A stretch of 64,000 nucleotides of DNA, taken from positions 3,360,001-3,424,000 of the forward strand of contig JBKAGP010000001.1 in the NCBI GenBank assembly GCA_046290465.1, given 5' to 3'. Under the pieces are notes generated by a model. The model saw only the letters and a list, made by a program, of their open reading frames with translations, was not told the DNA's origin and searched no databases. Source of the DNA: Planctomycetota bacterium (GTDB taxonomy: Bacteria; Planctomycetota; UBA1135; UBA2386). Each line of letters starts with the position of its first letter. Positions within the stretch are counted from its first letter, which is position 1. This document shows, one piece after another, positions 47,291-64,000 of this stretch. The position numbers and the translations under genes were made by a program.

Positions 47291-47859
47291 GTGGCGGAGC
47301 ATGCATCGCCCCGCCAGCATCGACACCCGGCCCGCCACAGCAACGTCGGCGACGACGGCACGATCGAGTTCTCCGGGACGTTTGCCGGCGCCGGCAGCGT
47401 GCCGCTGACGCTCGGCACCACCTCGGTCCCGATCCGCGTGCGCCTCACCGGCCAGCACGCAGCGACGCAGGGCAACCACGTCGCTTCGGACAGCATCCGG
47501 CTGTCGGTGACGCCACAGAACTTCCTCGCGATCCAGCCGGCGGCCTACGGTTGCGAGACGGCCAGCGCGTCGCCCTGCCGGCGTTCCCGCAGAGCGGCGT
47601 GCTGTTCGGCGTCGGCGTGGCGTCGGGCCCCGCGGTCGCGGTCTACGGCCTCGGTGTGCAGCCGACGCTGCTGCCCAACAGCGGTGCGCTGCAGCCGTGC
47701 CTGCTGGTGCCGAGCCCCGACCTGGTGGTGCTGATCCCGCCGAACGGCCACCTGCTCGGTCTGCCGGCCGCGGTGCGCCCGATCACGGTCTACGTGCAGG
47801 GTGTGGTGCTGCTGCCGACCGGGCTGGGCACCAGCAACGGCTTCGTCGTGCAGGGATAG
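47291..47859 (+). pseudogene. Frameshifted, probably 5'-truncated secreted-protein gene remnant
   Basis: Protein-like text switches frame near 47560 (...QPAAYGC / LPAFPQSGV...YVQGVVLLPTGLGTSNGF). Confidence 0.55.
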
Positions 47860-47883
47860 GACGGCCGTCGACGGCCGCCCGCG

Positions 47884-48777
47884 CTACGGCGTCGCCGCAG
47901 CCAGCAGCCAGACCGAGATCGAACGGCGGTCGTCGTGTGGATGCACGCCGACCAGACCGACGAAGCCGCCGCAGGTGCGGTAGGGCGGCGTCGACGGCAC
48001 GACGACCATCGCGCAGCGCAGGCTGAGCTGGTCGTTGATCAGCAGGTCGACCGGGAACGAGTAGGCGTCGAGGCCCGCGGGCCCGGTCGCCGGCCGGCAC
48101 TGGTCCAACACCGCCCGCTTCTTGAGGTGCACCCCGCCGACGAGTTCCCAGACCGGCGGCACCGCTGCGACGCTCTGCACCAGCGCGAGCAGTTCGTCCG
48201 ACTCCTGCACGACGCCGAGGATGCTCGCCATCGCGAAGCGCGCCTTGGCGCTCGGGGACGACGAGTAGCCGACGAACGAGGCGAGCATGCCGCGCTTCTC
48301 GGGCTCGGCCGGCGGCTCGGCCCCCTCGTGCTCGAGCCGGCAGCCCTCGAACGCACCGTGCAGCAGCGACGGCGACGCGCGCACCGACTCCGAGCCGATG
48401 CGCCGGCCATCGGCGGCGAAGGTCACCAGCTCGAGCGACACGGACGCAGCGCGTTCCGTCGACTCGTCCACGACCGCGCGCACCAGCAGGAACCGGTCCT
48501 CGACCTCGTCGCCGCGCCGGGTCCGGACCCCGAACAACGCACGGTCGCCGGCCCGCATGTGTTCGCGGTCGCCGGCGGCGGGGAAGCCCTGCAGGATCCC
48601 GTCGGCGACCGGCCACTCGGCAGCCAGGGCCGCCAGGTCGACCACCTCGGGCGTCGCGGCCGCCGGCGCCGTGCCGGCGCACCCCGCCAGGATCGCGAGG
48701 CCCAGGACCGCGACGCAGCGCTTCGCGCGCGTCCATACGTAGGAATCCCGCGCGCCGTTCCCTTCTACACACTGCAT
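47884..48777 (-). CDS. Hypothetical lipoprotein
   Basis: ILAGC lipobox; last gene of the minus-strand cluster. Confidence 0.65.
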   Translation of the reverse strand: MQCVEGNGARDSYVWTRAKRCVAVLGLAILAGCAGTAPAAATPEVVDLAALAAEWPVADGILQGFPAAGDREHMRAGDRALFGVRTRRGDEVEDRFLLVRAVVDESTERAASVSLELVTFAADGRRIGSESVRASPSLLHGAFEGCRLEHEGAEPPAEPEKRGMLASFVGYSSSPSAKARFAMASILGVVQESDELLALVQSVAAVPPVWELVGGVHLKKRAVLDQCRPATGPAGLDAYSFPVDLLINDQLSLRCAMVVVPSTPPYRTCGGFVGLVGVHPHDDRRSISVWLLAAATP

Positions 48778-48829
48778 ACCGACACCCTACATCGGACCTG
48801 ATACATGCACCAGCGCGGCCGCGACACGG

Positions 48830-50257
48830 CTACTTGCCGACGCGATCGTTGCCGACACGATCCTTGCCGACAAGGTCTTTGCCGGCCGCGACGCTCGCCG
48901 CGATGCGTGCCAGGATGTCCGCGACCGGCGGCCAGACGCCGACCTCCGGATGCGCGATCACCAGCGACGCGCACAGCGACGCCGCCTTCGTGACGTGCAG
49001 GCCGTCGATGCGCGCCAGCCGCTGCAGCATGCCGCCGACGCCGCCCTCGACGAAGCTGTAGGTCAGCACGTGCGTGCCGACCACGACGCCATCGCGATCG
49101 ACGACGACGACCAGTTCGAGCGAACCGCTCGTGCGCCACGCCGCCGCCGCGAGGTAGGCATCGAACGTGCGCCCCTGCCCGTCGATCAGCGCGAGCGCTG
49201 GCATGCCCGGCTGCGCGGCCCCGCCGGTCGTCGCGATCGAGACCTCGCCGCCGAGGACCTTGCGCGCCGCGCCGAGCACCAGGGTCTGCATCGGCACGAT
49301 CCCGTCGAGCGACCGCGACAAGCGCTGGAAGGCGACGCTGCCGGTCTGCACGGCGATGCGTCGGTCGTCGCCGACCTCGAGATAGTGCGGCAGGCGCAGG
49401 ACCCCAAGCCGCCTGGCGTCCCCGGGCTCGCACAGGCCATAGCACGGCAAACGCTCGAGGCCGCGCGCATCGAGGGCCTCGCGGCACCGCGCCAGCGTCT
49501 CGCGACTGGTCAGCACCACGAGCGCGCCGCCGTCGCGGTGGCGAGCGTCGTCGATGCGCCCCCAGTCGACCATCGAACGCACGCAGTGCTCGCAGTCCGG
49601 CGACATGACGATCGCGGCGCTGCCCGCGCTTAACACGTCGGCCAGCGCACGGCGTCGCCCGTCGACGGCCTCGACCTCGATGGCCGGGATCGGCTGCCCG
49701 GGTCGCAACTCGGAGGAGCGCGCAACCACCATCTGTTCGCCGTCCGGCTCGCCGTGGGCGAGCTTCTCGGCGACCAGCAGGGCTGCCAGCGTGGCGATGC
49801 AGACACCACACAGGTAGCGCCAGCGGAACGCGCCGATGCCGGCCCAGACGACCGCGACGGCAAGGCCGGCGAGCCGCAGCAGCATGGTCCAGAGGTCGTG
49901 CGTGTCGACCATCATCGACACCGGATCGCCGCAACCGCAGTCGTCGAGGAACGCACCGTCGCGCGCGCTGAGGCTGACGGTCCCGGCGAACGCGAGCAGC
50001 AGACCGAGCAGACCGTGAGCGGCGACCGCCCGCGTCCAGCGCAGGCACAGCAGGATGGCGAGCGCGATCTCGAGCGCGCCGAGCCCGAGCATCACCCGGC
50101 CGTACGTCTCGAGGCCCAGCAGCGGTTCGAACAACTGCGGCATCGTCACCTGGTCGTCGAAGAACTTGCTGACGCCCGAGACCACGAAGCTGCCCGCGGC
50201 CACCACGGCGGCGACCAGCCGCGACCAACGGATCCGGCGCGTGCCCGGCTCGTTCAT
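48830..50257 (-). CDS. MauE/DoxX-thioredoxin-like fusion membrane protein (paralog 2)
   Basis: SGVSKF, LEIALA and DCGCG (MauE); SPDCEHC with LGVLRLP cis-Pro loop (Trx/AhpC); start overlaps the exosortase stop (ATGA). Confidence 0.8.
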   Translation of the reverse strand: MNEPGTRRIRWSRLVAAVVAAGSFVVSGVSKFFDDQVTMPQLFEPLLGLETYGRVMLGLGALEIALAILLCLRWTRAVAAHGLLGLLLAFAGTVSLSARDGAFLDDCGCGDPVSMMVDTHDLWTMLLRLAGLAVAVVWAGIGAFRWRYLCGVCIATLAALLVAEKLAHGEPDGEQMVVARSSELRPGQPIPAIEVEAVDGRRRALADVLSAGSAAIVMSPDCEHCVRSMVDWGRIDDARHRDGGALVVLTSRETLARCREALDARGLERLPCYGLCEPGDARRLGVLRLPHYLEVGDDRRIAVQTGSVAFQRLSRSLDGIVPMQTLVLGAARKVLGGEVSIATTGGAAQPGMPALALIDGQGRTFDAYLAAAAWRTSGSLELVVVVDRDGVVVGTHVLTYSFVEGGVGGMLQRLARIDGLHVTKAASLCASLVIAHPEVGVWPPVADILARIAASVAAGKDLVGKDRVGNDRVGK

Positions 50258-50790
50258 GCCGGGGCTCCCGCCGGCTGCGCCGGCTCCGCCGCGCACCGCC
50301 CGTCGACGCGCCGCGCCCACAAGAACGCCGCGGTGAACGTGAACGCCTGCACGAACGGCCAGATCCAGTCGTGCAGCAGCACGAAGGTGTTGATCGAGCC
50401 GTGGCCGTAGGCGACGACCGTTCCGATGCGGGCCATGTTGGCGACCGTCCACGCGGCCGCCAGCACCAGCAGCAGCACCGACCGGAACGTCCACGAGCCG
50501 CGGATCGAGACCGACAGCGCGACCAGGTACGGGATCGCCAGCAGGCCGGCGCACATCGGCTCGACCAGAAAGCGCATGCGCGAGCCCTGCACGGCGATGG
50601 TCACGTCGTGAACGTCGGCCGCCGCGCCGAACAGCCGCGCGAACCACGTGCTGGCCTGCGCGAAGGCGCGGCAGATCGCGTCGACGACGCCGACCTCGGC
50701 CAGCAGCAGCATCGTGACGAAGGCTGCGGCCAGCGACACGACCACGCGGACGGCGAAGGCGCGGCGCTGCTTCGGACTGCGAACGGGCAT
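50254..50790 (-). CDS. Exosortase/archaeosortase-family transpeptidase (short XrtH-like type)
   Basis: Multi-TM; catalytic-triad motifs VEPMCAG (Cys), ANMARI (Arg), LLHDWIW (His). Confidence 0.8.
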   Translation of the reverse strand: MPVRSPKQRRAFAVRVVVSLAAAFVTMLLLAEVGVVDAICRAFAQASTWFARLFGAAADVHDVTIAVQGSRMRFLVEPMCAGLLAIPYLVALSVSIRGSWTFRSVLLLVLAAAWTVANMARIGTVVAYGHGSINTFVLLHDWIWPFVQAFTFTAAFLWARRVDGRCAAEPAQPAGAPA

Positions 50791-50793
50791 GGC

Positions 50794-50857
50794 GGGCGTC
50801 GTTGTGGAGGGGCGTCGTTGTGGAGGAGCGTCGTCTAGAAGGGGCGTCGTCGTGAGC
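50794..50857. repeat. 16-bp degenerate tandem repeat (GGGCGTCGTTGTGGAG, about 4 copies)
   Basis: Seen directly, immediately upstream of the exosortase start. Confidence 0.75.
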
Positions 50858-50900
50858 AGGCTTCGCAGCCAGGAGGCTGGGGACTACCGGAGGTCCACCG

Positions 50901-53111
50901 CTACAGCGAGGTCCGCGTGCGCGCCGGTCCAGCGACGCGAACCTCACCGGTCCGCCCCGCCTCGCCGCCGCGCAGGATCGTGATGCGGTAGCTCCCCGGC
51001 GACAGGCCGTCGACCGCCACCGCCTGCGTCGCGAGCGTGCGCAGGTCGTCGACCTGCACCTCGGCGACCTTGACCGCCCGCGGCAGGCCCACGCCCTCGA
51101 CCTCGAGCGCTTCGACACGGACCGTCCCGGCGCCGTCGAAGCGCGCGTCGACCGGCTCGGCGAGGCCGACCTCGACGCCGGCCAGCGGCCACGCGATCAG
51201 GTTGCCGCGCAGCGGCGACAGCTGGCTGCGCACCACCGCGACCGCCCCGTCCGCCGCCTCGAGCCGCACCACGCCGTCGCCCGCGGCCGGCACCGCGAGC
51301 GCGACGCGCCCGTGGTCGTCGGTGGTCGCGTGCGACACGCGTTCGCTGCGCACGTCGAGGTAGGAGACCCGGCAGCCGCGCAGCGGCGTGCCCTGCCGTT
51401 CGACCGTGACCTGCGCCCGGTCGTGCGGCATGGCCAACGACATCGACAGGCTCGCACCGGGCGCCAGTTCGCGGTGCACGGGCTCGGACTTGGGGTTGGT
51501 GAGGACCACGTAGTGTCCCGCGACCAGCCCGCCGAAGCGGAGCGGCCCGCGCACCGGCAGCTCGGCGACGACGACGCTGACGAGCTTCTTCTCTCCGAAC
51601 ACGCGCTTGAGCAGCACGATCGGCAGCCGCGTCGCCGGCTGATCGCGCAGCAGCCGTTCGCGCGTCGAAGACGGATAGCTCAGCACGATCTCGCCGAGCG
51701 GCGGCAGCTGCAGTTCGACGAACGCGGCGGCGCCGTCGTCGGCAAGCGTGTACCGTGCCAGGTTGGTGACGGACGCGGTGCCGTCGTGCTTCGGCCGCGG
51801 CGTCGGGCGCACGTCGAACGCGTAGTCCCCCAGCGGCAGCTGCTCGAACGAGAACCGCCCGTTCGCGTCGGTCTGCGCCTCGGCCAGCGGCGGGTTGCGC
51901 CCCATGCGCGGATGCGGCTCCGGCGGCGGCCGGCGCTGGTCGAGCGGCCACGCCTCGACGGCCACCCCGACCGCAGGCGTGCGGTCGGCGCGCAGCACGC
52001 GTCCCTGCAGCGCCCGGCACGGCACGCGCTGCAGCACGATCTCGACGTCGCGCTGGCCGCGCTGCACGCCGTCGACGGTCGCCTCGACGAATCCGGTCTT
52101 GCGCGCCGTGATCCGGAACGCGCTGCCGCGGGCGGCGATCGACCAGGTCCCGTCCGGGCCGCTCGTGCACGACGAACGGCCGGTCCCGAGGAACCCGGAC
52201 GCCCCCTGCACCGCGGCACCCGGAACGGCCACGCCGGCCTCGGTCACGACGCGGCCGCGGATGCTGCCGGCATCGCGCATCGGCACCTCCAGCTCGACGT
52301 CCCCGTCGGCTGCCGGCACCACCTGCAGCTGCGGCTCGTAGCCGGCACACTCGCACAGCAGCACCAACGGCACACCGGCCGCGACCGGCGCCGCGAGCTG
52401 GCCGCGCTCCGCCTCGCGTTCGAGCACGTAGAGCGCATCGCCGTCGCCGGTCTCGGCCCCGGCCGCCGCCAGCAACCGCATGGCCGCCGGCACCGGCGCG
52501 CCGCTGGCGGCGTCGATCGCGCGCGCAGCCAGCCGCCGCGGCGCACGCAGCGGGATCACCAGGTCGCGCTGCAGTCCTGCACGTTGGCCGACGCACTGCC
52601 AGCGACTCTGCACCTGCTGCTGCTCGGGATCGAACACCGCCACGGCCAGCCCACCGGCGCCCGGCGGCAGCGCGCACCAGCCGGAGTCGTCGGTCACGCC
52701 GAGCAGTTCGAAGTCGCCTTGCTTGTGGCTCGTGCTCCAGCTCGCCGGCAGCGTGTTGACCCGCACCAGCTTGCCCTCGCGAACCGCGAACAGGCGGCAC
52801 GACCAGGACTCGGGCATCCAGACGACCCTGGCCCCGGCCACGTCCTGGCCGTCGCGCTGCACGCGCACGCCGATCGCCTCGCCGCCGTCGGCACCGCGCG
52901 CCAGCTGCCGCTCGCTCGCGTCCGGCACCGGCGACGCCGCCGCGTTGGCGACGTCGGCCGACGGCTTGGCGACGAGATCGGGGTCGGCCACCGGCTCCGG
53001 ACCGTCGACGCCACGCCACCAGTCGCCGGTCGCGAGCACCGCGATCAGGGCAGCGACCAGCGCAACGGGCGCGACGACGACGAACCAACCACGAGACGGC
53101 GATCTGCTCAT
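50901..53111 (-). CDS. Membrane-anchored protein with carboxypeptidase-regulatory-like repeats
   Basis: N-terminal TM; GRVVTEAGVAVPGA, QTDANGRFSF and TTDDHGRV repeats; start overlaps the upstream stop (ATGA). Confidence 0.75.
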   Translation of the reverse strand: MSRSPSRGWFVVVAPVALVAALIAVLATGDWWRGVDGPEPVADPDLVAKPSADVANAAASPVPDASERQLARGADGGEAIGVRVQRDGQDVAGARVVWMPESWSCRLFAVREGKLVRVNTLPASWSTSHKQGDFELLGVTDDSGWCALPPGAGGLAVAVFDPEQQQVQSRWQCVGQRAGLQRDLVIPLRAPRRLAARAIDAASGAPVPAAMRLLAAAGAETGDGDALYVLEREAERGQLAAPVAAGVPLVLLCECAGYEPQLQVVPAADGDVELEVPMRDAGSIRGRVVTEAGVAVPGAAVQGASGFLGTGRSSCTSGPDGTWSIAARGSAFRITARKTGFVEATVDGVQRGQRDVEIVLQRVPCRALQGRVLRADRTPAVGVAVEAWPLDQRRPPPEPHPRMGRNPPLAEAQTDANGRFSFEQLPLGDYAFDVRPTPRPKHDGTASVTNLARYTLADDGAAAFVELQLPPLGEIVLSYPSSTRERLLRDQPATRLPIVLLKRVFGEKKLVSVVVAELPVRGPLRFGGLVAGHYVVLTNPKSEPVHRELAPGASLSMSLAMPHDRAQVTVERQGTPLRGCRVSYLDVRSERVSHATTDDHGRVALAVPAAGDGVVRLEAADGAVAVVRSQLSPLRGNLIAWPLAGVEVGLAEPVDARFDGAGTVRVEALEVEGVGLPRAVKVAEVQVDDLRTLATQAVAVDGLSPGSYRITILRGGEAGRTGEVRVAGPARTRTSL

Positions 53112-54559
53112 TGGACGGATCGGGCGAGCGCCCGTTCGAGTGCACTGCTGACGGGGATCCAGACGTAGCCGAGCCGGGCGTCCCGATGCAGGTGGGCGCC
53201 GTAGGCGGCGGCCTCTTCGAGCGTCATGCCCGGCAGCGCCTCGAGGTGCGGCGCCGGATCGTCCGCGCCGGTGAAGCCGAGCTGCCAGTCGATGGCGCGC
53301 GCAGCGCGGATGCGGCCGTCGCGACCGAGCAGCAGCGCCAGTTCGACGAACTCGGGGCGATACGGATTGCCACCGACCACCAGCAGCGTCTGCGGCTCGG
53401 CGCCCGCGACCTCGACCGACAGGCACCCATCCGAACGGCGCAGCTCGCCGAGCTGCATCGACGCGTCGGCGCCGTCGAGCTGTCGCAGCACCAGCTCGGC
53501 AGCGGCGCGTTCGCCGACCAGGCGACGCATCGCGGCGAACGACGACGTGTGCCGGAACGTCGAGGTCTTGGCATCGACGCGCATGCCGCGGCCGACGCGG
53601 ATCATGCACGGGACCATCGTGACCCCCAGCGCCTCCAGGTCACGCCGTTCGACCAGCCGGCAGACGACGGCGTCCGGCACCGCACTCTGCATCGTGGCCG
53701 GAACGGCAACCGGCTCGGCCGAGCTGGCGTCGACGTCGACCATGACCAGCCGGCCGCCGCGCTGCGCCGCGTCCTGCTGCAGGTGCTGCCAGTAAGCAAC
53801 CGCCTCGTGACAGTGCGGGCAGTCCCGCGAGTAGAAGATCAGACAGTCCTCGACCCGGAGCAGCCGGTAGGCGCTGGTGACGTCGCCGCCGACGGCACGC
53901 AGCCGCACGTCGGGAATGCGCCATCCGACCCGGTCGAGGCGCGCATCGCGCAGCACGCCGTTGAGCGCGGCCTTGGTGCTGCGGCGATCGATCGACTCCG
54001 ACAGCGCCAGCACGAACCCAGCCGGCGCGATCGCCGCCAGCATCCAGACCAGCCGCCGACCGCGACGCGCACAGCTCGCGAGCATCGCGACCAGCACCGT
54101 GTTGCGCAGCACCATCAGGGGCGCGCCGTAGCCGAACGTCTCGGCCGGCAGCGTGACCCCGCAGCCGCAGTTGGCGAGGAACGAGTGGTCGCCCGCGCTG
54201 GCAGCGGCCAGCAGCGAGAACGACGTCAGCAGCACGCCGCCGACGAGCGCGGCGATGCGGCGACCCCGGGTGAACACCAGGGCCACCGCCACCAGGCACT
54301 CGAGCACCGCAACGGCCAGAACCATGCGCTGGAAGGCCGTCGCCGAAAGTGCTCCGAGCACCACCGGCTGCGCCGGCGCGCCAAAGACGAGCTTCTGCAC
54401 GCCGGCGACGCCGAGCACGATCCCCGGTATGGCCCAACCGGCCACGCCGAGGATGCGTCTCTTGAGCCCCGGCCCTGCAGCTGCAGGACCGGCCTCGGAC
54501 CGCGAGCCACCGGCGTTCGCCGTCAGGCAATCGGGCGAAGCGGCAACGACGTCGGTCAT
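53108..54559 (-). CDS. MauE/DoxX-thioredoxin-like fusion membrane protein (paralog 1)
   Basis: AGVQKL, LECLVA and NCGCG...LRN (MauE); YSRDCPHC with LGVTMVP (Trx fold). Confidence 0.8.
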   Translation of the reverse strand: MTDVVAASPDCLTANAGGSRSEAGPAAAGPGLKRRILGVAGWAIPGIVLGVAGVQKLVFGAPAQPVVLGALSATAFQRMVLAVAVLECLVAVALVFTRGRRIAALVGGVLLTSFSLLAAASAGDHSFLANCGCGVTLPAETFGYGAPLMVLRNTVLVAMLASCARRGRRLVWMLAAIAPAGFVLALSESIDRRSTKAALNGVLRDARLDRVGWRIPDVRLRAVGGDVTSAYRLLRVEDCLIFYSRDCPHCHEAVAYWQHLQQDAAQRGGRLVMVDVDASSAEPVAVPATMQSAVPDAVVCRLVERRDLEALGVTMVPCMIRVGRGMRVDAKTSTFRHTSSFAAMRRLVGERAAAELVLRQLDGADASMQLGELRRSDGCLSVEVAGAEPQTLLVVGGNPYRPEFVELALLLGRDGRIRAARAIDWQLGFTGADDPAPHLEALPGMTLEEAAAYGAHLHRDARLGYVWIPVSSALERALARSVQ

Positions 54560-54574
54560 CGGGTGTTGCCGGGA

Positions 54575-55000
54575 TCAGGCGAGGCGGAACCGGCGGCCGA
54601 ACGCGGCCAGGCCGGCGAGGATGCCGAGCGCCCACGGCAGCGGGCTGCGCGACGGATCGTCCGGCACCTTGCAGTAGCAGAGCGCGTCGGAGCCGACCTC
54701 TTCGCCTTCGTCGTTGGTGACGACGATCTTGCCCTCGTAGCAGCCTTCGCCTTCTTCGAGTTCGTCGACCTCACCGGCGCGGCACTTGTCGAGCGTCGGG
54801 CAGGCGGGTTGGTACTCGAAGCAGTCGTCGCCGTACTTGGTGTCGCAGGGGCCGGACCAGACCTCGTCGCCGTTGGCGTCGTAGATCGTGCAGGTGTAGT
54901 CGGCAGGATCGGCGTTGGGCGGCAGCGGGCTCGGGCCCTGGGCGGAGAGGGCGCTCGCGAACAGCGTCGAGAGCAGCAGCGTAGAGAGAACACGGATCAT
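54575..55000 (-). CDS. Small acidic Cys-rich secreted protein with a C-terminal sorting signal
   Basis: Signal peptide, 8 Cys, tail CYCKVPDDPSRSPLPW + hydrophobic helix + GRRFR; GGAG RBS. Confidence 0.8.
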   Translation of the reverse strand: MIRVLSTLLLSTLFASALSAQGPSPLPPNADPADYTCTIYDANGDEVWSGPCDTKYGDDCFEYQPACPTLDKCRAGEVDELEEGEGCYEGKIVVTNDEGEEVGSDALCYCKVPDDPSRSPLPWALGILAGLAAFGRRFRLA

Positions 55001-55388
55001 GTTGGACTCCGATTCAAAGCAGAAGAAAGCTCTGATCCCGCGGCGCGAGATCTTCCCGCTGGCACCCTAGACCCGTTGGGTCAGCCGTCAACAATACGTG
55101 TTGGTCGCCGCGCCCGCCAGGGTATCGATACCCGTGCAGGGATGACGCAAGGCGTTTGGCTGCGACCGGTTCGCAAGGATCCGACGCGCCGTGCGAGGGG
55201 CAGCGCGCCTCGAATGGTCGACCATGTCGACCATTTTCTCGCACCGCCCCAGGGACCTTGTGCCGGGGAGCCTCGCTCCTACGCTGACGCTCCGTCGACG
55301 AAGGTTCGGCCAACGCGCCGTGCGCGACCCGCGGTCACCACGACCCGCGAGACGCCGCAGGAAGAAGCCCACCCCAGGATCCCACCCG

Positions 55389-56215: not shown

Positions 56216-57427
56216 ATGACTCGACCGAAGTGCCTCGCACCGCTGCTGCTGCTCTTGCTGCTCGCCTGCACCGCATCGACGCAGGAGAAGGTCACGGTAC
56301 GCGCAGCGCTGTTCCCCTATCTGCCGCCGGACCGCCACAACGAAGCACTCCATGAACGCATCACGTCGGAGTTCCACAAGGCGAACCCGGACCTGAAGCT
56401 CGAGCTACGCCGCTTCGACAGCTGGGAGAACTTCTACGACCCGCACTTCCTGACGAAACTGCTCCGCGGCGCGGATCGCTACGACATCATCGAGGTGGAC
56501 ACGGTCCTGCTCGGCACGCTGCTCGACCTCGAGCTGGTGGCCCCGTGGCCCGCACCTCTCAGTGACGCGCAGCCCATCGCCCGTGACGCCGCACGCGTCG
56601 ATGGCATCACCTATGGAATGCCGCACTGGTTGTGCGGGCACTTCGTGATGAGCACGCACCAGAAGGTCGCAGCGGCCGAGAGCGCAAGCCAACTCGTGGC
56701 GGCGCTCGAAGCCGCAGCACCTGGCACCCGCAACCTCGCCGCCAACCTCCGCGGAAGCTGGAACGGCCCCGCTCTCTACCTGGATGCGTGGGCAGACTCG
56801 CGCAGCTCCAACGACCTGCTCGGCGCAATCCGGCTCCCGCTCGACACCGACGTCGCCGGGCTACTCGCCCAGGTCGCCGCCCAAGGCGCCTTCCAGGGCG
56901 TGAACCCCTGCATCAACGGCGACTACGAGGACAACGACCAGGCCGCGATCGACTTCGGCACCGGCAAGGCCGACGCACTGCTCGGCTACTCCGAACGGAT
57001 GCACCACGCGGTTGCCGCGGGCATCGACCCCACGAAGGTCTTCGTGGGATCCGCTCCGCTCGGCGCCGGCTCCGATCCAATCTGGTTCGTGGACATGTTC
57101 GTCCTGCCGGGCGACTACCCGGATGGCGTGACGCCGGAGGAGATCAAGGCCCGCCGCGAGGGGGCGCGGAGGTTCGGCGAGTTCATGAACCGGGCCGACG
57201 TGTTCGCCTGGATCCACCAGAGCGCGGATCTCGGAGCGAAGGCGGCGCCGAGGTACCTGCTTCCGGCCACCCGATCCGCCTACGAGCATCCGGCGTTGGC
57301 GCGCGACCCGATCATCGGACAGGTGCGACCGCTGGTGGGCCGCGGCACGTTCTTTCCGCGGTTCCGGCTTCCAGGAGCCAGAAAGCGGATGGAAGCTGCA
57401 GTCAACAGGGCGATCGGGGCCAAGTAG
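56216..57427 (+). CDS. Thiaminase I (thiamine pyridinylase)-like lipoprotein, periplasmic-binding-protein fold
   Basis: ALFPYLP, EVDTVLL, YGMPHWLCGHF (nucleophile Cys), LGYSERM (catalytic Glu), WFVDMF, PRYLLPA. Confidence 0.8.
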   Translation: MTRPKCLAPLLLLLLLACTASTQEKVTVRAALFPYLPPDRHNEALHERITSEFHKANPDLKLELRRFDSWENFYDPHFLTKLLRGADRYDIIEVDTVLLGTLLDLELVAPWPAPLSDAQPIARDAARVDGITYGMPHWLCGHFVMSTHQKVAAAESASQLVAALEAAAPGTRNLAANLRGSWNGPALYLDAWADSRSSNDLLGAIRLPLDTDVAGLLAQVAAQGAFQGVNPCINGDYEDNDQAAIDFGTGKADALLGYSERMHHAVAAGIDPTKVFVGSAPLGAGSDPIWFVDMFVLPGDYPDGVTPEEIKARREGARRFGEFMNRADVFAWIHQSADLGAKAAPRYLLPATRSAYEHPALARDPIIGQVRPLVGRGTFFPRFRLPGARKRMEAAVNRAIGAK

Positions 57428-57929: not shown

Positions 57930-58030
57930 CGCCCCACGACCAGGCGACGGAAGGAGCGCTGCCAAGAGCTCGGCAGAACGTTCGTCGCCACCACCGAGCC
58001 GCTCGATCCACACCGTGACGGTGGTTTCGA
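57930..58030 (-). pseudogene. Frameshifted N-terminal relic of a Planctomycete-type ECF sigma factor
   Basis: VTVWIERLGGGDERSAEL / WQRSFRRLV across a frameshift. Confidence 0.5.
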
Positions 58031-58258
58031 CGGAGGGATCGGGTCGGTGGGGATGGCTTGCGAGCGTGGCGTTTGGCTGGGCGCGGTCGGGGGCACTCGT
58101 CGTGCGGACACCGGGTAGGATCGCGCGGCGGTTCAAGCCTTTGTTCGGACTTGAGTTACGGCTGTCACCGCAGGACGCATCGCCCGCAGCTCCCATCCCA
58201 TGGCGCCGTCTGAATCTATCCGAGGCCTCCGCGTAGGCTCGACGTCTGGGACACGCTC

Positions 58259-58861
58259 ATGCACGACCTCATCGGCGACCTCTACTTCGCTGGCGCTCTC
58301 GCCGCCCTCTACGGGTTCTTCACCCTCATCGGGGGGACAACTCCTAAGGCGCAACTGACCACGCTGCTTCTCCTCGGGTTCGCCTTCCTCGCTGATGCCT
58401 ACTCGTGGCTGGTCGTTCCTGTTCGCGAGACAAGCTCTTCGCTGCTCTGGAAGCTCGACTCTCTCGGCGTCATCGCCTCCTTCATCGCCGCTGCACTCGC
58501 TGCCAACACAACTTGGTCCAAGGCCTTTGGCGCTCTGGTCCTCTCGCTTGAGACCTACCTCATCACCGCGTTCGTCTACTGGTTCTACCTGCCGACTCAA
58601 GACCCGAAGCTCTTCGCATCCGTCATGGAGACCTGGGGCGCGACCTCGCAGGATGACATGGACCTGTACCGACTCCTCGCACTTCTGCTCTTCTCCGTTT
58701 CACCGGTGGTCCTCGCCCTTGGCTACTTCGCAACCAAGGGGTGGCTGCCGTGGGTTCGCACTCGCTGGCCACACCTCTGGACCAAGCGCTGGCACGTGCT
58801 CGCTGTTCTGATTGGCGCTTACTACGTCGCCTACAACGTCACACCGTGGCTCCTTCTCTGA
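58259..58861 (+). CDS. Hypothetical integral membrane protein (island cargo)
   Basis: About 6 TM helices; atypical codon usage. Confidence 0.65.
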   Translation: MHDLIGDLYFAGALAALYGFFTLIGGTTPKAQLTTLLLLGFAFLADAYSWLVVPVRETSSSLLWKLDSLGVIASFIAAALAANTTWSKAFGALVLSLETYLITAFVYWFYLPTQDPKLFASVMETWGATSQDDMDLYRLLALLLFSVSPVVLALGYFATKGWLPWVRTRWPHLWTKRWHVLAVLIGAYYVAYNVTPWLLL

Positions 58862-59002
58862 CCCGATGGGGGACCACGGCTTCGGGTCCTCGGTGACGGA
58901 GCCATGCCGCGTCTTCTTGCGTTCCTCCTCGAGTTCGGGCGTCGGTTGCTCACCAGCTCGGGGTGAGTGAGCAACACGAACCCTCAACCGGAGGCAACGA
59001 AG

Positions 59003-59254
59003 ATGACAACAGCACGTCCCATCCACCAAGTTCGCATCGGCCGCATCGTGGCCGCCATCTGGGCGAACGAGACTCCCCTCGGCACGCGCCACAACGTGAC
59101 GCTCAGCAGGCTCTACAAGAGCGGGCCCACCGACGACTGGAAGCGCACCGAGAGCTTCGGCCGCGACGACCTTCCCACCGTCGAAAAGGTCTGCGACCTG
59201 GCTTTCCGCTGGATTCACGACCAGCGCAAGGCGGACGGTGACGGGGCCGCCTGA
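59003..59254 (+). CDS. Small mobile-element protein, possible PC4/SpoVG-like nucleic-acid-binding fold
   Basis: PIHQVRIGRIVAAIWAN...HNVTLSRLYK...WKRTESFGRDDLP; GGAGG RBS. Confidence 0.75.
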   Translation: MTTARPIHQVRIGRIVAAIWANETPLGTRHNVTLSRLYKSGPTDDWKRTESFGRDDLPTVEKVCDLAFRWIHDQRKADGDGAA

Positions 59255-59316
59255 GCGGCCGTCTTGCCTGCTACCTCACCTCTTCGTGCAGGTAGCTCCT
59301 GAGAGCTAACGAGTGG

Positions 59317-59874
59317 TCACGAAGGAAACGTGAAGCGGTCCGCTCCAAGACCTGCCGCGTTCTTCTGACAGTAGGCAACCCCCTTGTTCGACAAGAACAC
59401 CTGGCCGTTGCCCGGGTCGTGCTCCACGAGACCAGCTTCGAAAAGCTTGGCAACGGCTCGCGTGTAGTCCCTCCAAACCGACGAACGCGGGTCGAGTCCG
59501 AACGTCCACCGACCTTCGGTTGGCTTCTTGAAGTGCTGCTGCTGGTAGTGCCACAGCGTGTTCAGCACGCGGCGTCCCATGTCTCCGAGTTCAACATTCT
59601 CGGGCACGAGCTCTGCGTCGGGCGCAGCTTCCGGCGCACTAGTCGTTCCCTCCCCGAACTCGTACTTGCCCCAGGGTGAGTCCCAGCTTCGAAGACGGCC
59701 AAGAAGAGCGACTACGTGCTTTCGGAACCACCACACGATGACCAACACGACCAAGGGCCATGCCAGAGCTTCGACCAGACGGAGAAAGAACTCCGCACCA
59801 TCGACGGCATCCGTTGCGGTGGCTACCGCTTCGGTCTTCGACGCAACAACGTCCGGCTGGGCCTTCTCCTGCAT
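59317..59874 (-). CDS. Hypothetical single-TM protein with a C-terminal winged-helix-like region
   Basis: LAWPLVVLVIVWWFR TM motif; LFEAGLV...LSNKG. Confidence 0.6.
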   Translation of the reverse strand: MQEKAQPDVVASKTEAVATATDAVDGAEFFLRLVEALAWPLVVLVIVWWFRKHVVALLGRLRSWDSPWGKYEFGEGTTSAPEAAPDAELVPENVELGDMGRRVLNTLWHYQQQHFKKPTEGRWTFGLDPRSSVWRDYTRAVAKLFEAGLVEHDPGNGQVFLSNKGVAYCQKNAAGLGADRFTFPS

Positions 59875-60018
59875 GAAGGCACACTCTCTCGTGGCAAGGG
59901 GAGGTGAGGCAACGGCGACGCGGAGAAACAGAGAGAAGCAGCCGCGTGGTAGGCGCAGACAAAGCCCGCGCTCGTTGAGTAACCCGGTCCCCCCCACTCG
60001 CCGTTCCCGGGCTTGACC

Positions 60019-60046
60019 ACGCTTGATAAAATGGGTTATCGTCAGT
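60019..60046. other. dif-like tyrosine-recombinase site (11-6-11)
   Basis: ACGCTTGATAA-AATGGG-TTATCGTCAGT: inverted GATAA/TTATC around a 6-bp spacer, directly upstream of the recombinase gene. Confidence 0.6.
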
Positions 60047-60121
60047 AGTCATGAGCCAGATTCGGGTGGGGGACTCGGCCAACTCCTGTCTCCTGAACAG
60101 CTTGGAGCGGCACTCCTGACT

Positions 60122-61324
60122 ATGAACCGAAGCGTCGATGCGACTCGTGACCCCGGGCTCCCGGACCCCTCCTCGGGTCCGGCGCCGGTCGGCGAGCTCG
60201 TCTCGGCTGGCGATGGGATGCCCGCGGTGCTCCTCGGGCATGCGACGCCTCAGGTCGCGGCCAAGGTTGAGAGCTTCTGCAGGTCCGTCGCCTCGATGCT
60301 CGAGGCTTGGATTCAGCGCAGCCAGAACCCGAACACCCAGCGCACGTACCGCCGTGCCGTGATGGACTTCATCGAGTTCTTGGGCATCGACTGGCCTGAG
60401 AACTCGCACGAGCTGCTCTCCGCATCGGTCCCGGACGTCCGGGCCTGGCGGGACACGCTCGCGGCTGCAGGCAAGGCTCCCGCGACCCTGAACGCCAGGC
60501 TCTCGGCACTCTCCGGGTTCTACCGCTTCATGCGGGAGGTCTCGGTCACCGAGATGAAGCTACCCATCCAGGTCCCGAACCCGGCGCACGCCCAGTTCAT
60601 CGGCCGCGAGAGCCCCGAGCCGGTCTCCCCAACGTCCGCCCTCACCCTCTCGAAGGCGAAGCGACTCCTGGCGCTTCCTTCACGCGACCACATCCTGCGA
60701 GCCGACGAGTTCCTCGCCAAGCGCTTCAAGAACAACCCCGCAGCGCTCGAGCACGAACTCGACGTCTTGGTTGCTCGCGACCGGGCTGTCTTGGCGGTCT
60801 TTCTCTACACCGGGTCGCGCATCGGCTCGGTCTGCGCGCTCCACGTCGCGGACTTCCACGACGACGAGGACGACCCCACCATCAGCTTCCGCGAGAAGGG
60901 ACGGTCGCGTTCGAAGCGCCGCATCGGCGTCAACTTCGTGTGTGCCGAGGCGCTTCGCGACTACCTCGAGCGTTCAGGTCTCACGAAAGGGCCTCTCTTC
61001 CGGGCGCGAACGAACCCCCGCAGTGCGAAGCTGAGCTCGCGCCAGGTGAGCCAAGCCACGATGTACGGCTTGCTTCTCTCCTACCTCGAGCGCGTGCCGG
61101 GGGCGATGGCTGAGGAAGAGCTCGAAGATGGGTCGAGCCGGAAGCGGTGTCGCTACTCCCCCCACTCGCTACGCGCGACCACGGCGACGCTACTCGACGA
61201 GGCCGGGGTGCCCATCAAGCGCATCCAGGAGTTGCTCGGGCACAAGGACATCCGCGTCACCCAGGCCTACATTAAGCTACTGCGCGACACCAAGAAGAGT
61301 GCGTCGCACGACGTGCCACTCTGA
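60122..61324 (+). CDS. Tyrosine recombinase (XerC/D-like integrase)
   Basis: RDRA..YTGSRIG (Arg), HSLRAT (His-x-x-Arg), LGHKDIRVTQAY (His, Tyr), N-terminal SAM-like domain; start uncertain. Confidence 0.93.
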   Translation: MNRSVDATRDPGLPDPSSGPAPVGELVSAGDGMPAVLLGHATPQVAAKVESFCRSVASMLEAWIQRSQNPNTQRTYRRAVMDFIEFLGIDWPENSHELLSASVPDVRAWRDTLAAAGKAPATLNARLSALSGFYRFMREVSVTEMKLPIQVPNPAHAQFIGRESPEPVSPTSALTLSKAKRLLALPSRDHILRADEFLAKRFKNNPAALEHELDVLVARDRAVLAVFLYTGSRIGSVCALHVADFHDDEDDPTISFREKGRSRSKRRIGVNFVCAEALRDYLERSGLTKGPLFRARTNPRSAKLSSRQVSQATMYGLLLSYLERVPGAMAEEELEDGSSRKRCRYSPHSLRATTATLLDEAGVPIKRIQELLGHKDIRVTQAYIKLLRDTKKSASHDVPL

Positions 61325-61484
61325 ACGCACGCCCATGACGTAGAATCTCCGAAGAAGTTGAGCCGGGCATGGCGACGACGCGCTGCGCGTCTCTGCGGCG
61401 AGTCTCGTGGACCGCGACCACTCCGGCTACGACGTCACGCTCGAGAACGTCGCGCTCGTCCTATTCTGACACACATCCGCATCC

Positions 61485-62234
61485 GTGCCCCTGCCACTAT
61501 CTGTCCCACTCTGCTACGGAAGCTCCTACCCTGACCTCAGCGACATCAAGTTCGGTGGGTCGTGCTTCGAGTTCGTCGGCCACAGCGACGGACGCGGATG
61601 GTTTGCAACTTGCCGACACGTTGTCGACGATTGCCCCGAAGGTCACTCGCCATTCATCTGCGACGCACTGGAGACGACTAACAGAGACCCGAAGTTCTAC
61701 CCCATCCTCGAGGTCCGGCCTCACCCCAAAGTCGACTTCGCCGCGCTGCACATCGACTTCTCGGACTCGGACCACCGTTGGAATCCAGAGTGGCGCTGGT
61801 TCGGCCCCGCTCCAGACGACGGACTCCTCGACGACGTCTCAGCGGCGGGATGGGTCATCGAGACTTGCGGTAGCGGAACACACTTGCTGAGCCGCAGGTT
61901 GAAGGGCTACGTCACGAGGACCATCGCAACCCCCGACTATATCCCTGGAGCGGGCGACGCTTGCTTGGAGGTCTCTTTTCCTTCGGTCGTTGGGTTCAGT
62001 GGAGCCGCCCTTGTGGCACCAGACCACAACTCCTCGACACCACCGCCAGAGAGAGTCGTCGGCATGATGTTTCAGAACCATCGGTCCAGAGTCGACGAAT
62101 CACTCGAACACGAGTTCACCGACGGGAGAGGCATGACCGAGCGAGAGCGCATCGCGAGCATTGTCAACTTCGGACTCGCCCATCCGGTGTCCGTAATCCT
62201 CTCCTGCCTCAATGACCTTGGGCTCGGCCGATGA
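61485..62234 (+). CDS. Trypsin-like serine protease domain protein
   Basis: ATCRHVV (His), VDFAAL (Asp), GFSGAAL (Ser); no signal peptide. Confidence 0.75.
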   Translation: MPLPLSVPLCYGSSYPDLSDIKFGGSCFEFVGHSDGRGWFATCRHVVDDCPEGHSPFICDALETTNRDPKFYPILEVRPHPKVDFAALHIDFSDSDHRWNPEWRWFGPAPDDGLLDDVSAAGWVIETCGSGTHLLSRRLKGYVTRTIATPDYIPGAGDACLEVSFPSVVGFSGAALVAPDHNSSTPPPERVVGMMFQNHRSRVDESLEHEFTDGRGMTERERIASIVNFGLAHPVSVILSCLNDLGLGR

Positions 62235-62346
62235 CCGTGTCGGCACAGGAGCATGACCTCGTCTCACGAATAAGAGGAGCGAGCGTCGGTGGTCGAAGAG
62301 TGTCGACGGTGGCACGAGTGCCATCCCCCACCTAAGGCAGGCCACT

Positions 62347-62973
62347 ATGAATATGGACTTTGAACCCGACACTTACACTGACCCGATGTTTTGCCGGCAC
62401 TGTCAGGCCGAGACCCCTATGTATCGGGCCGCCAGTTTCGTGCAGACGGTCGAGGACGTCAGTCCCATCACCGTTACCGAACGCTGGGTCGCGTTGAGCT
62501 GTCCGAAGTGCTCGGGCATTTCTCTTCAAAGGAGGGTCACCGACAACGTTCCTTGTGAGGACATGGATGTACCGGTTTGCACGGTTGTATACCCAGCAGA
62601 GGTTCGACCCCCGGTAGGCCTACCCTCAAGTATCCAAGATGCTTTCGTGGAAGCCGCAAGAGCGGCTAGCTTTAGCACCTCTCTCTCCGGCGTTGGCTTT
62701 CGCCGAGTCCTCGAGATGGTGTGCCGCGACAAGAAGGTCCAGACCCCGAAGCTCGCAACGGGCATCAACCAGCTTGTAGAGTCCGAGGACCTCAAGTCGC
62801 GATTAGCTCAGCTTGCTCATGAAGTGAGAGCGCTAGGCAACCGCGGTGCGCACGAGTGGGAGAGGCTGTCGAAGGCAGAGGTCCGCAGCGCTGAGGCCCT
62901 GTGCCGCGCCGTTCTCGAGGTCGTCTACAGCGCTCCGCATCTCATCACGCAGGTAACAAGGCACGATACGTGA
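62347..62973 (+). CDS. DUF4145 (HEPN-like) protein with an N-terminal zinc ribbon
   Basis: CRHC...CPKC; LPSSIQDAFVEA, RRVLEMVC, RALGNRGAHE. Confidence 0.85.
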   Translation: MNMDFEPDTYTDPMFCRHCQAETPMYRAASFVQTVEDVSPITVTERWVALSCPKCSGISLQRRVTDNVPCEDMDVPVCTVVYPAEVRPPVGLPSSIQDAFVEAARAASFSTSLSGVGFRRVLEMVCRDKKVQTPKLATGINQLVESEDLKSRLAQLAHEVRALGNRGAHEWERLSKAEVRSAEALCRAVLEVVYSAPHLITQVTRHDT

Positions 62974-62978
62974 GCGCG

Positions 62979-64000
62979 TCAGTGCTCCCTGCGGAGTTCC
63001 TGTAGCTTCTTCCAGTCCGCCTCCAAGCCCGCGAGCGTTGGTCGGACATTCAGCGTCTCGAGAGGCTGCTTGTGCGAGTCCAGATACCGACAGCAGTCGT
63101 CGAAGATATCGCATACCCCATCACGCGTCTCTGCCAAGGATTGGATATTGATGTCGCGAAGGTTCCCGACCATCACGTTCGGGCGGTAGCTCTGGACGAC
63201 CGACTTCAACACCTTCTGCTCAACGACGATTTCGCAAGCGCCGCGAAGCGCCTCGTATCCCTTCTCCACGAACATCGTCTGCATCTCGGCATCGGACTCG
63301 ACCTTCGCGCGCTCGATGAGACGGTTCACGCGCTTCCTTCTGTCGTCCCAGGTGTCTAGCTTTGGGCTGCCCCCTAGCTGTACCTTACCACGCTTCTCGC
63401 CAGCCTCGGTGATATCGAAGTATGAGCACGCACTCTTATTCTTGTCGAAGTGCTCAAGGAGCAGCATCGTGAACCACACGTTGTGCGTGAACACGATGAC
63501 CTGACGGCCCTTGCTCAAATCGACGAGCCGCTCGGCGACATATCTCATGCGTCGGTAGTCGAGGCTCGTGACCGGGTCGTCGAAGACCATGGGCGAGGCG
63601 CTCCTCCGAAGCGTCGCCTCGGCAAGGAAGTCTGCAAGCGCAATCACCTTCTGCTCGCCCTCCGAGAGAATGGCTCGGAGCCCGACCTGCGGTGCCAGAC
63701 TCTTAGTTCTCGCTGGAGCCCCTCCTTCCCCCGCGAAGTTCAGGTTCACAGATGGTGCCTTGAGAGCTTTGCACTCGTCACCAAACGTCGCCTCGAAGTC
63801 CTGATAGATGAGCCGCTTGCTCGCTGCCTTTGCCTCTTCGGTCAGCGACTTCAGTATTCCCGTCATCGTGCGTCCCAGAGTCGTTGCTCGAGACGCCCAC
63901 TTCGAGTTCTCGACGTGCTCCCGCACTCCCGGAAGCAGCTCTGCGAGGACCATCCGGTCGCTCAACTCGCGCAGCTCCTTTTCGGCGTCCGCCAGAAGCT
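62979..64000 (-). CDS. SMC/Rad50-like ABC ATPase (AAA_13/RloC-like), C-terminal part; gene starts beyond the window
   Basis: LSEGEQ signature, FDDPVTSLD Walker B/D-loop, VFTHN H-loop, helical C-terminal domain. Confidence 0.85.
   Translation of the reverse strand, partial: LLADAEKELRELSDRMVLAELLPGVREHVENSKWASRATTLGRTMTGILKSLTEEAKAASKRLIYQDFEATFGDECKALKAPSVNLNFAGEGGAPARTKSLAPQVGLRAILSEGEQKVIALADFLAEATLRRSASPMVFDDPVTSLDYRRMRYVAERLVDLSKGRQVIVFTHNVWFTMLLLEHFDKNKSACSYFDITEAGEKRGKVQLGGSPKLDTWDDRRKRVNRLIERAKVESDAEMQTMFVEKGYEALRGACEIVVEQKVLKSVVQSYRPNVMVGNLRDINIQSLAETRDGVCDIFDDCCRYLDSHKQPLETLNVRPTLAGLEADWKKLQELRREH

Follow-up and report, generated by a model that had tools for sequence, protein, structure and literature searches.

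A six-gene planctomycete cassette that may couple oxidative folding of a cysteine-rich miniprotein to exosortase-type C-terminal sorting

INTRODUCTION

Two tested systems for proteins with tripartite C-terminal tails, ArtA and rhombosortase, cleave their substrates and leave them anchored in the membrane, according to the accessible parts of 10.1101/2023.06.07.544157 and PMC7157517. The former also describes the Cys/Arg/His triad of exosortases; as far as its accessible text goes, there is little biochemical proof for the bacterial enzymes, and cutting and anchoring in a single step is stated as open. A separate line of work concerns MauE. In the available part of 10.64898/2026.03.05.709764, two MauE proteins replace DsbB and require their CXC motif, a Lys and a Glu are conserved, MauE is oxidising in both assays and thioredoxin fusions make up 8.2% of MauE entries; the Phe-Gly following CXC is described as highly conserved and not shown to be essential, and a previous suggestion that MauE acts as a reductase is cited. 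The accessible portion of PMC8238504 does not mention MauE. Here we describe a locus that holds both kinds of protein, a cassette of six genes (G1–G6) at positions 47884-55000 of a 64,000-nucleotide stretch of a Planctomycetota bacterium genome (assembly GCA_046290465.1, contig JBKAGP010000001.1, positions 3,360,001 to 3,424,000; hereafter the window). With a probability of roughly 0.55 we read G1–G6 as a dedicated maturation cassette, in which a small protein would be exported, tethered by its tail, oxidised by MauE-thioredoxin proteins, cleaved by the exosortase G4 and transferred to a membrane anchor.

Each single part of this kit is already known, and it is likely the combination that is undescribed. 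The initial annotation of the window, a reading of its sequence alone, knew of no such system, and a full-text literature search, with subscription journals outside its reach, found no paper that joins an exosortase with MauE, with VKOR or with planctomycete cysteine-rich disulfide proteins. What we regard as new is the proposed coupling of oxidative folding to C-terminal sorting, the unnamed tail with its exosortase, and a three-domain MauE family.

RESULTS

Six co-oriented genes with two translational couplings

Coordinates throughout are those of the window, genes are numbered in transcription order, and three-digit labels (G462, G105, G057 and the like) denote other genomes. The six open reading frames (ORFs) all lie on the minus strand at the positions given by the initial annotation, and both of the ATGA overlaps that it reported are present, at 53108-53111 (G2–G3) and 50254-50257 (G4–G5). 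Through these overlaps G2–G3 and G4–G5 are translationally coupled, which we counted in favour of a cassette. The remaining intergenic gaps measure 15, 110 and 52 bp. Third-position GC amounts to 0.88-0.95 in all six frames, and codon position bias backs each of them. A sigma-70 promoter, a terminator, a tRNA and an Rfam match were all looked for, and none was found. In related strains the indels listed inside the block, beyond which 8 + 5 more rows exist, are all intergenic (48828 and 50801-50821). In two runs of one strain study the contigs span about 47800-55000 with little or no upstream cover, and one loose contig end lies at 55034; we claim no mobility for the block, because its flanks are covered in other studies. 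The higher contig depth over G1-G2 in three runs was not used, since depth cannot rank genes.

The substrate candidate G1 and its tail

G1 (54575-55000, minus strand) encodes a predicted secreted, acidic miniprotein of 141 aa and is the likely substrate. Its initial description as a secreted protein with eight cysteines and a motif-helix-basic tail is borne out: the cysteines are residues 37, 52, 60, 67, 73, 87, 108 and 110, and the hydrophobic N-terminus was judged by eye and hydropathy to be a signal peptide. Residues 21-116 are strongly acidic, with 24 D/E vs 5 K/R. The C-terminal region (54575-54679, minus strand; residues 108-141) runs from a Cys pair through a Pro/Asp-rich motif and a 16-residue hydrophobic helix (120-135) to an RRFR cluster, and this motif/helix/Arg layout is that of sorting signals. 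The helix is short, with a mean hydropathy of 1.53, and the last cysteine sits 10 residues ahead of it. Only two close relatives were found when proteins of 77-247 aa were searched (99% and 80% identity), and both keep all eight cysteines. In comparison with the 80% relative, P0004, the tail (108-141) has 0/34 differences and the core 24/87 (Fisher p = 2e-4); a tail that stays unchanged while the core diverges is what would be expected of a recognised signal, although recent DNA exchange may be an alternative cause of the identity.

The tail matches no named signal. MYXO-CTERM (TIGR03901) scores 15.7 for G1 and 15.5 for P0004 against a cut-off of 20, the G1 match spanning only positions 11-31 of the 34 in the profile and leaving the Cys signature outside; IPTL-CTERM (TIGR04174, PF18203) gave no G1 match at E <= 1. 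The protein as a whole matched no Pfam family and nothing in the PDB below E 0.5, its atlas structure matches all had template modelling (TM) scores <= 0.40, and a G1 profile gave no meaningful E-value across the other ORFs of the genome (best 0.019). Out of 5152 ORFs, a crude genome-wide tail scan picked 17 candidates, of which several are implausible; two of the 17, G1 and C1:5742415-5743707, adjoin small exosortases. On these sequence comparisons we regard the G1 tail as a candidate for a new, unnamed sorting signal.

G4 and the other exosortases of the genome

G4 (50254-50790, minus strand; 178 aa) had been annotated as an exosortase-family enzyme, and hidden Markov model (HMM) searches agree: it passes the exosortase signature TIGR04178 with 26.5 against a cut-off of 23, and its 81% orthologue P0002 reaches 35.3. 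It keeps C80, R121 and H140, which together with N118 are invariant in 7/7 aligned exosortases. Pfam PF09721 left G4 unmatched at E <= 1 and gave 27.2 vs 25.7 for the orthologue. The scores for named subfamilies lie below their cut-offs (XrtX, 24.5 < 170; XrtH, TIGR04177, 19.5 < 86). Judged by its sequence, G4 is a small single-domain member of the exosortase/archaeosortase superfamily that fits no named subfamily.

The genome holds two further exosortases, one of which is XrtH-like (73.2 vs 86) and has a tailed neighbour. At C1:5741093-5743707 this XrtH-like enzyme is accompanied by a SEC-C-tailed membrane protein and by a neighbour with an IPTL-like tail that resembles that of G1. The word ‘dedicated’, which the initial annotation had used for G4, thus goes further than the evidence, as the other enzyme adjoins a similarly tailed protein. 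A small-exosortase profile, run on 90 other genomes of the family with 4-16 kb fetched per locus, matched in 19 of them; all matches are long frames of 304-1116 aa, which we judged to be larger, housekeeping-type exosortases. As a control, MauE or a small Cys-rich ORF was found in the fetched DNA at 0/19 of these loci. A search with G4 alone over 91 family genomes found only a long, EpsH-type exosortase.

G2 and G5 as members of a three-domain MauE-thioredoxin family

G2 (53108-54559; 483 aa) and G5 (48830-50257; 475 aa), both on the minus strand, are 23% identical. The MauE model (PF07291, cut-off 27) gave 44.1 for G5; for G2 it gave 26 in one scan and 32.1 in another. G2 carries CGC at 131-133 in its MauE domain and CPHC at 247-250 in its thioredoxin domain; in G5 the corresponding motifs are CGC at 107-109, accompanied by K31 and E63, and CEHC at 222-225. 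That both are MauE-CxxC fusions had been recognised from the outset, but a third, C-terminal RnfG-like domain of ~145 residues had been overlooked in each. While a single-sequence model of G5 was unusable (predicted local distance difference test, pLDDT, 44), the model built from the family alignment reached a pLDDT of 86.7. In this model the middle domain resembles thioredoxins of the SdbA/ResA type (Z 13.9 to SdbA, root-mean-square deviation 2.8, 133 aligned). For residues 318-462 the match is RnfG 7zc6_G (Z 11.0, root-mean-square deviation 4.3, 138 aligned; one row of a whole-protein search). The domain order of G2 was taken over from the model of its paralogue.

A profile search of cluster representatives with G2/G5 found 207 proteins, 46 of them at E <= 1e-10. 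The family alignment comprises 35 rows, namely 32 near full-length representatives, G2, G5 and one genome hit, with partial or weak ones excluded. CGC is present in 34/35 rows and CxxC in 35/35, and K31 and E63 are at least 90% conserved. The flavinylation motif of RnfG-type FMN-binding (flavin mononucleotide-binding) domains, which we take to be [S/T]GA[S/T], occurs in 0/35 rows, and the FMN_bind Pfam model matched neither the 35 members nor the isolated C-terminal domains. As modelled, G2 and G5 belong to a rare family with three domains: MauE, thioredoxin and one that is RnfG-like but lacks the flavinylation motif. G5 had no plasmid match, and in a metagenome locus search with G5 alone 0/43 pattern matches were confirmed. 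Since MauE has been shown to substitute for DsbB, the MauE domains here are best read as a general oxidase type rather than as a mau relic.

A very unlikely alternative would make G2 and G5 a general or reductive redox relay of the envelope instead of G1 foldases, with an RnfG-like domain that serves in electron transfer or docking and with G1 cysteines that bind metal or cycle rather than form structural disulfides. Such a relay would suit the TlpA/ResA-like thioredoxin, the FMN-binding fold of the last domain, the very acidic G1 and the mostly unrelated neighbourhoods of the three-domain family, as well as the earlier reductase proposal cited in 10.64898/2026.03.05.709764. However, the assays in the available part of that source found MauE oxidising both times, the flavinylation motif is missing from every row, the conserved cysteines of G1 are even in number, and a small Cys-containing secreted protein is directly adjacent at 3/7 other loci of the family (L011, L078, L103-L107). 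On two metagenome contigs these are related, tail-less 4-Cys proteins encoded directly upstream of three-domain MauE genes (L104:3-575 and L105:479-895).

Recurrence in other genomes

Profile searches over 339 and 401 genomes scored only 4 candidates per genome, so that misses are possible. Recurrence does exist, if patchily: it is seen in two further genomes, both of which depart from the cassette in an important component. The best non-self match of the G2/G5 profile among 401 genomes of the phylum (E 1.5e-28) is a MauE/thioredoxin pair in G462, which belongs to the same phylum and is not among the class genomes. At G462:C129 a gene for an extracytoplasmic function (ECF) sigma factor is followed by a secreted acidic peptide, MauE, a thioredoxin (CPHC), a lipoprotein-thioredoxin and an exosortase. 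The peptide has nine cysteines after its likely start and has short motifs near its end in common with G1; the exosortase scores 37.3 bits and is 31% identical to G4. The RnfG-like profile gave no match to the G462 thioredoxin protein. This locus is a lower-GC stretch (0.61-0.65 vs about 0.73) with integrase-like genes nearby. Past the stop of the peptide the frame stays open for 41 more codons and contains a weakly hydrophobic run (L153:10180-10305); one possible reading is that the peptide has lost its tail by truncation, another that its short amphipathic end is itself the signal.

The G4 profile matched 6/338 other genomes of the class, G105 among them. At G105:C445 a secreted protein with 11 cysteines and a tripartite tail precedes an anchored 641-aa protein, an exosortase and a 147-aa protein, the last being ATGA-coupled to the exosortase and having four helices and two CxxC motifs; among its atlas neighbours (0.91-0.94) is a cluster in which 12% of the members carry VKOR. 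In G057 a 2.4-kb contig (C302) has a MauE-thioredoxin gene whose immediate downstream neighbour encodes a protein with 14 cysteines and an IPTL-like tail (19.5 vs 20.5 bits), and the one exosortase match of that genome lies on a different contig. Searches of 14 genomes from the same genus, 71-94% complete, did not find the cassette.

G3, G6 and a commoner peptide + MauE + CarboxypepD unit

G3 (50901-53111, minus strand; 736 aa) is the large beta-sandwich membrane protein that had been proposed: CarboxypepD_reg repeats (PF13620, 60.7 bits) stand behind one N-terminal membrane segment, and we infer a role as scaffold, chaperone or receptor. The genome has four MauE matches in three loci, the cassette included. 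A small secreted Cys-rich ORF (8, 12 and 12 Cys) is present at 3/3 of these loci, and so is an N-anchored CarboxypepD_reg gene within 2.5 kb, compared with a baseline of ~4.9% of the genome, which is an underestimate (150/328 CarboxypepD candidates scored). A partner at all three loci is unlikely by chance, and G3 therefore probably belongs to the cassette. A baseline for the Cys-rich ORFs was dropped, as two positions had been added after looking near MauE. Among the three MauE-linked peptides only G1 has a tail, and only G1 has an exosortase beside it.

The other two loci are built as follows. At C1:5994136-5998354 (L154:6137-10355, minus strand) a 12-Cys peptide without a tail is followed by MauE (CNC), a 332-aa protein with a C-terminal membrane segment and an N-anchored CarboxypepD_reg protein, and there is no exosortase. 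At C1:2048565-2051004 (plus strand) a secreted 12-Cys peptide precedes a 550-aa CarboxypepD-type protein and a 124-aa MauE (CGC), with third-position GC below that of the flanks. More small secreted peptides of 12-15 Cys lie at C1:557517-559630, 3927001-3928384, 4001130-4001573 and 4877688-4879233, two of them in tandem at 558 kb; they adjoin an N-anchored protein or a CarboxypepD match and have no MauE nearby. A further 20 MauE loci were chosen by score or frame length among 150 listed of 371 matches. Two of these 20 have a Cys-rich secreted ORF, in one case in the order ECF sigma factor, 14-Cys peptide, CarboxypepD, MauE. At L046:9067-13269 an ECF sigma factor fused to CarboxypepD_reg repeats is encoded directly upstream of a MauE-thioredoxin fusion.

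G6 (47884-48777, minus strand; 297 aa) is a predicted lipoprotein. This label is supported by a lipobox-like LAG-C33, the true start codon being probably later than annotated; a counterpart in the other cassettes was not found. It had no Pfam, NCBIfam or PDB match and has two paralogues elsewhere in the genome in unrelated contexts. Homology to the G462 lipoprotein was rejected (E 0.29). G6 is covered jointly with G1–G5 in one strain study, and its membership in the cassette is uncertain.

Taken together, the cassette resembles a commoner unit of Cys-rich peptide, MauE and CarboxypepD protein that has been elaborated with an exosortase, more than an invention that stands on its own. It is quite unlikely, in our estimate, that this unit simply gained an exosortase, with G1 being cut by the other XrtH-like enzyme or left uncut and G4 acting elsewhere. 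In favour of such a loose assembly, the unit occurs without an exosortase at 2/3 MauE loci of the genome and in G077, the tail beside the XrtH-like enzyme resembles that of G1, and orthology between the G4 and G462 exosortases is weakly supported (64/71). On the other hand, the sole tailed peptide of the three MauE-linked ones is the one that adjoins an exosortase, G4 is translationally coupled to G5, and the combination recurs at G462 and G105.

The composition of the unit also bears on the fate of the product. We consider it possible, if unlikely, that the tail serves only for a time, as a tether or follower peptide keeping G1 at the MauE-thioredoxin proteins until hydrolysis by G4 frees a soluble disulfide-rich peptide. 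That peptide would be a signal, ligand or chelator, perhaps directed at the anchored CarboxypepD protein and a circuit with an ECF sigma factor. Related peptides at MauE loci without an exosortase are tail-less (C1:5997758-5998354, C1:2048565-2049002, G048 and G077), so that the usual product looks soluble; the end of the G462 peptide is not a membrane helix; and the loci of G462 and G077 are each directly preceded by a gene for an ECF sigma factor, with an ECF-CarboxypepD fusion preceding MauE-thioredoxin at G068. Yet the same tail-less relatives show that a soluble product needs no protease, next to the cassette in the window no gene for an ECF sigma factor was noticed, and the tested tripartite-tail systems, ArtA and rhombosortase, end with an anchored product in the accessible text of 10.1101/2023.06.07.544157.

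Sequences next to the cassette

Elsewhere in the window, 56216-57427 encodes a secreted thiaminase I-like protein (TIGR04541, 45.5 vs 175). From 58000 to 64000 GC drops to 0.60-0.64, and an ORF labelled by eye as tyrosine integrase-like lies at 60023-61324; this region is probably an integrated element that forms no part of the cassette.

DISCUSSION

From the genes, domains and motifs, the conservation of the tail and the recurrence we infer the chemical steps and the product location as follows. G1 would be exported and then held by its conserved C-terminal helix. The MauE CGC loop of G2 and G5 would hand electrons to quinone, as DsbB does, and the fused CxxC thioredoxin domain would pass disulfides to G1, oxidising its eight cysteines to four disulfides; the paralogues G2 (CPHC) and G5 (CEHC) may divide oxidation and isomerisation between them. 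G4 would then cut at a point after the last Cys pair and ahead of the helix, via a Cys80 acyl-enzyme, and likely swap the tail for a membrane anchor, the acceptor being a phospholipid head group by analogy with ArtA and rhombosortase. The product would be a strongly acidic, disulfide-stapled miniprotein of ~10 kDa on the membrane, which probably binds cations or a partner such as G3. The initial annotation had already suggested folding followed by anchoring, and much of this picture is strengthened by the HMM result for G4, the conserved tail of G1, the DsbB-like MauE domains and the co-occurrence at 2/5 loci; display at the cell surface is the part that is not established, the G462 peptide having no hydrophobic tail.

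Several observations weigh against a dedicated maturation cassette. None of the six genes was recognised as one that supplies an anchor or serves export, and cleavage may release the product instead of anchoring it. The XrtH-like enzyme of the genome has a similar target tail and could also process G1. Neither G2 nor G5 has the usual Phe after CXC (present in 16/35 rows), and the shape of their thioredoxin domains is that of TlpA/ResA, a group that includes reductases. The G462 peptide has a charged, amphipathic-looking end without a hydrophobic membrane helix, and the peptide resembles G1 only weakly (BLASTP E 0.007). The G4 and G462 exosortases group weakly in the tree, and phmmer puts an XrtH-like protein first, so the recurrence may be convergent rather than by descent. 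The 147-aa protein of G105 has no Pfam, NCBIfam or PDB match, which makes its VKOR label a lead only. Gene neighbourhoods point both ways. A Cys-rich secreted protein together with a membrane redox protein is found at 2/5 small-exosortase loci of other genomes (L153, L164, L165, L166, L170), those of G462 and G105; from the side of MauE an exosortase is present at 0/7 other three-domain-family loci, 4/7 of which are under 3 kb, and at 0/20 picked MauE loci.

If a dedicated maturation cassette is the right reading, it would name a specific client for the newly recognised MauE disulfide pathway, link oxidative folding and C-terminal sorting in one operon and delimit a MauE family of three domains, the RnfG-like one being flavin-less. 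With one small substrate in 7 kb, it also allows a direct test of cutting and anchoring by an exosortase. Beyond the cassette, the peptide + MauE + CarboxypepD unit points to unmined disulfide-rich miniproteins in uncultured planctomycetes. A broader and only tentative idea, against which we would put the odds, is that the cassette belongs to a class of planctomycete operons for disulfide miniproteins, widespread but as yet undescribed. Each would combine a variable Cys-rich peptide with an interchangeable MauE- or VKOR-like oxidase and an anchored CarboxypepD partner, often under an ECF sigma factor; in the cassette an exosortase of a new subfamily would, as maturation protease, decide between tether and release, and the MauE-thioredoxin-RnfG-like proteins would be a new family of client-specific foldases. 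Were this true, such operons would make ribosomal, disulfide-stapled identity or signalling molecules.

Among the described systems, ArtA/PGF-CTERM offers a homologous Cys/Arg/His enzyme and, in the accessible parts of 10.1101/2023.06.07.544157 and PMC7157517, the experimental model of cleavage and lipid attachment. Unlike G4, ArtA is an archaeal housekeeping enzyme with several targets, and those parts describe no linked disulfide machinery. MYXO-CTERM with myxosortase and the small Cys-rich proteins of the MXAN_6627.5 type resembles the cassette in its small Cys-rich secreted protein and tripartite tail. This likeness is a lead only, given the weak HMM score of 15.7 and atlas neighbours at 0.80-0.81; G1 stays below the cut-off with a match that omits the Cys signature, and myxosortase is a glutamic CPBP protease whereas the protease of the cassette is a Cys-type exosortase. 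XrtH and XrtX are the nearest named models of G4, and an XrtH-like pair exists elsewhere in this genome. XrtH/IPTL-CTERM shares with the cassette a small single-domain exosortase near a target with a signal peptide and a motif-helix-Arg tail. However, G4 scores 19.5 vs 86 and G1 lacks an IPTL-CTERM match, and the target here is tiny, has eight cysteines, lies three genes upstream and is accompanied by disulfide enzymes in the same run. In the maturation of the methylamine dehydrogenase light chain by MauE/MauD, MauE and a thioredoxin-fold protein likewise stand beside a small disulfide-rich secreted client; MauA, MauB and MauG were absent from the six cassette and five flanking proteins, to which that search was confined, and the client of the cassette differs in having a membrane tail and an exosortase. 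A parallel for G2 and G5 is MauE as a DsbB-like disulfide generator, as far as the available part of 10.64898/2026.03.05.709764 describes it, with the CGC loop, the conserved Lys and Glu and the thioredoxin fusion in common. In contrast, the cassette has two paralogues in one operon, each with an RnfG-like domain and no Phe after CGC, and it would couple MauE to an exosortase and to one candidate client, features that the available part of that source does not mention.

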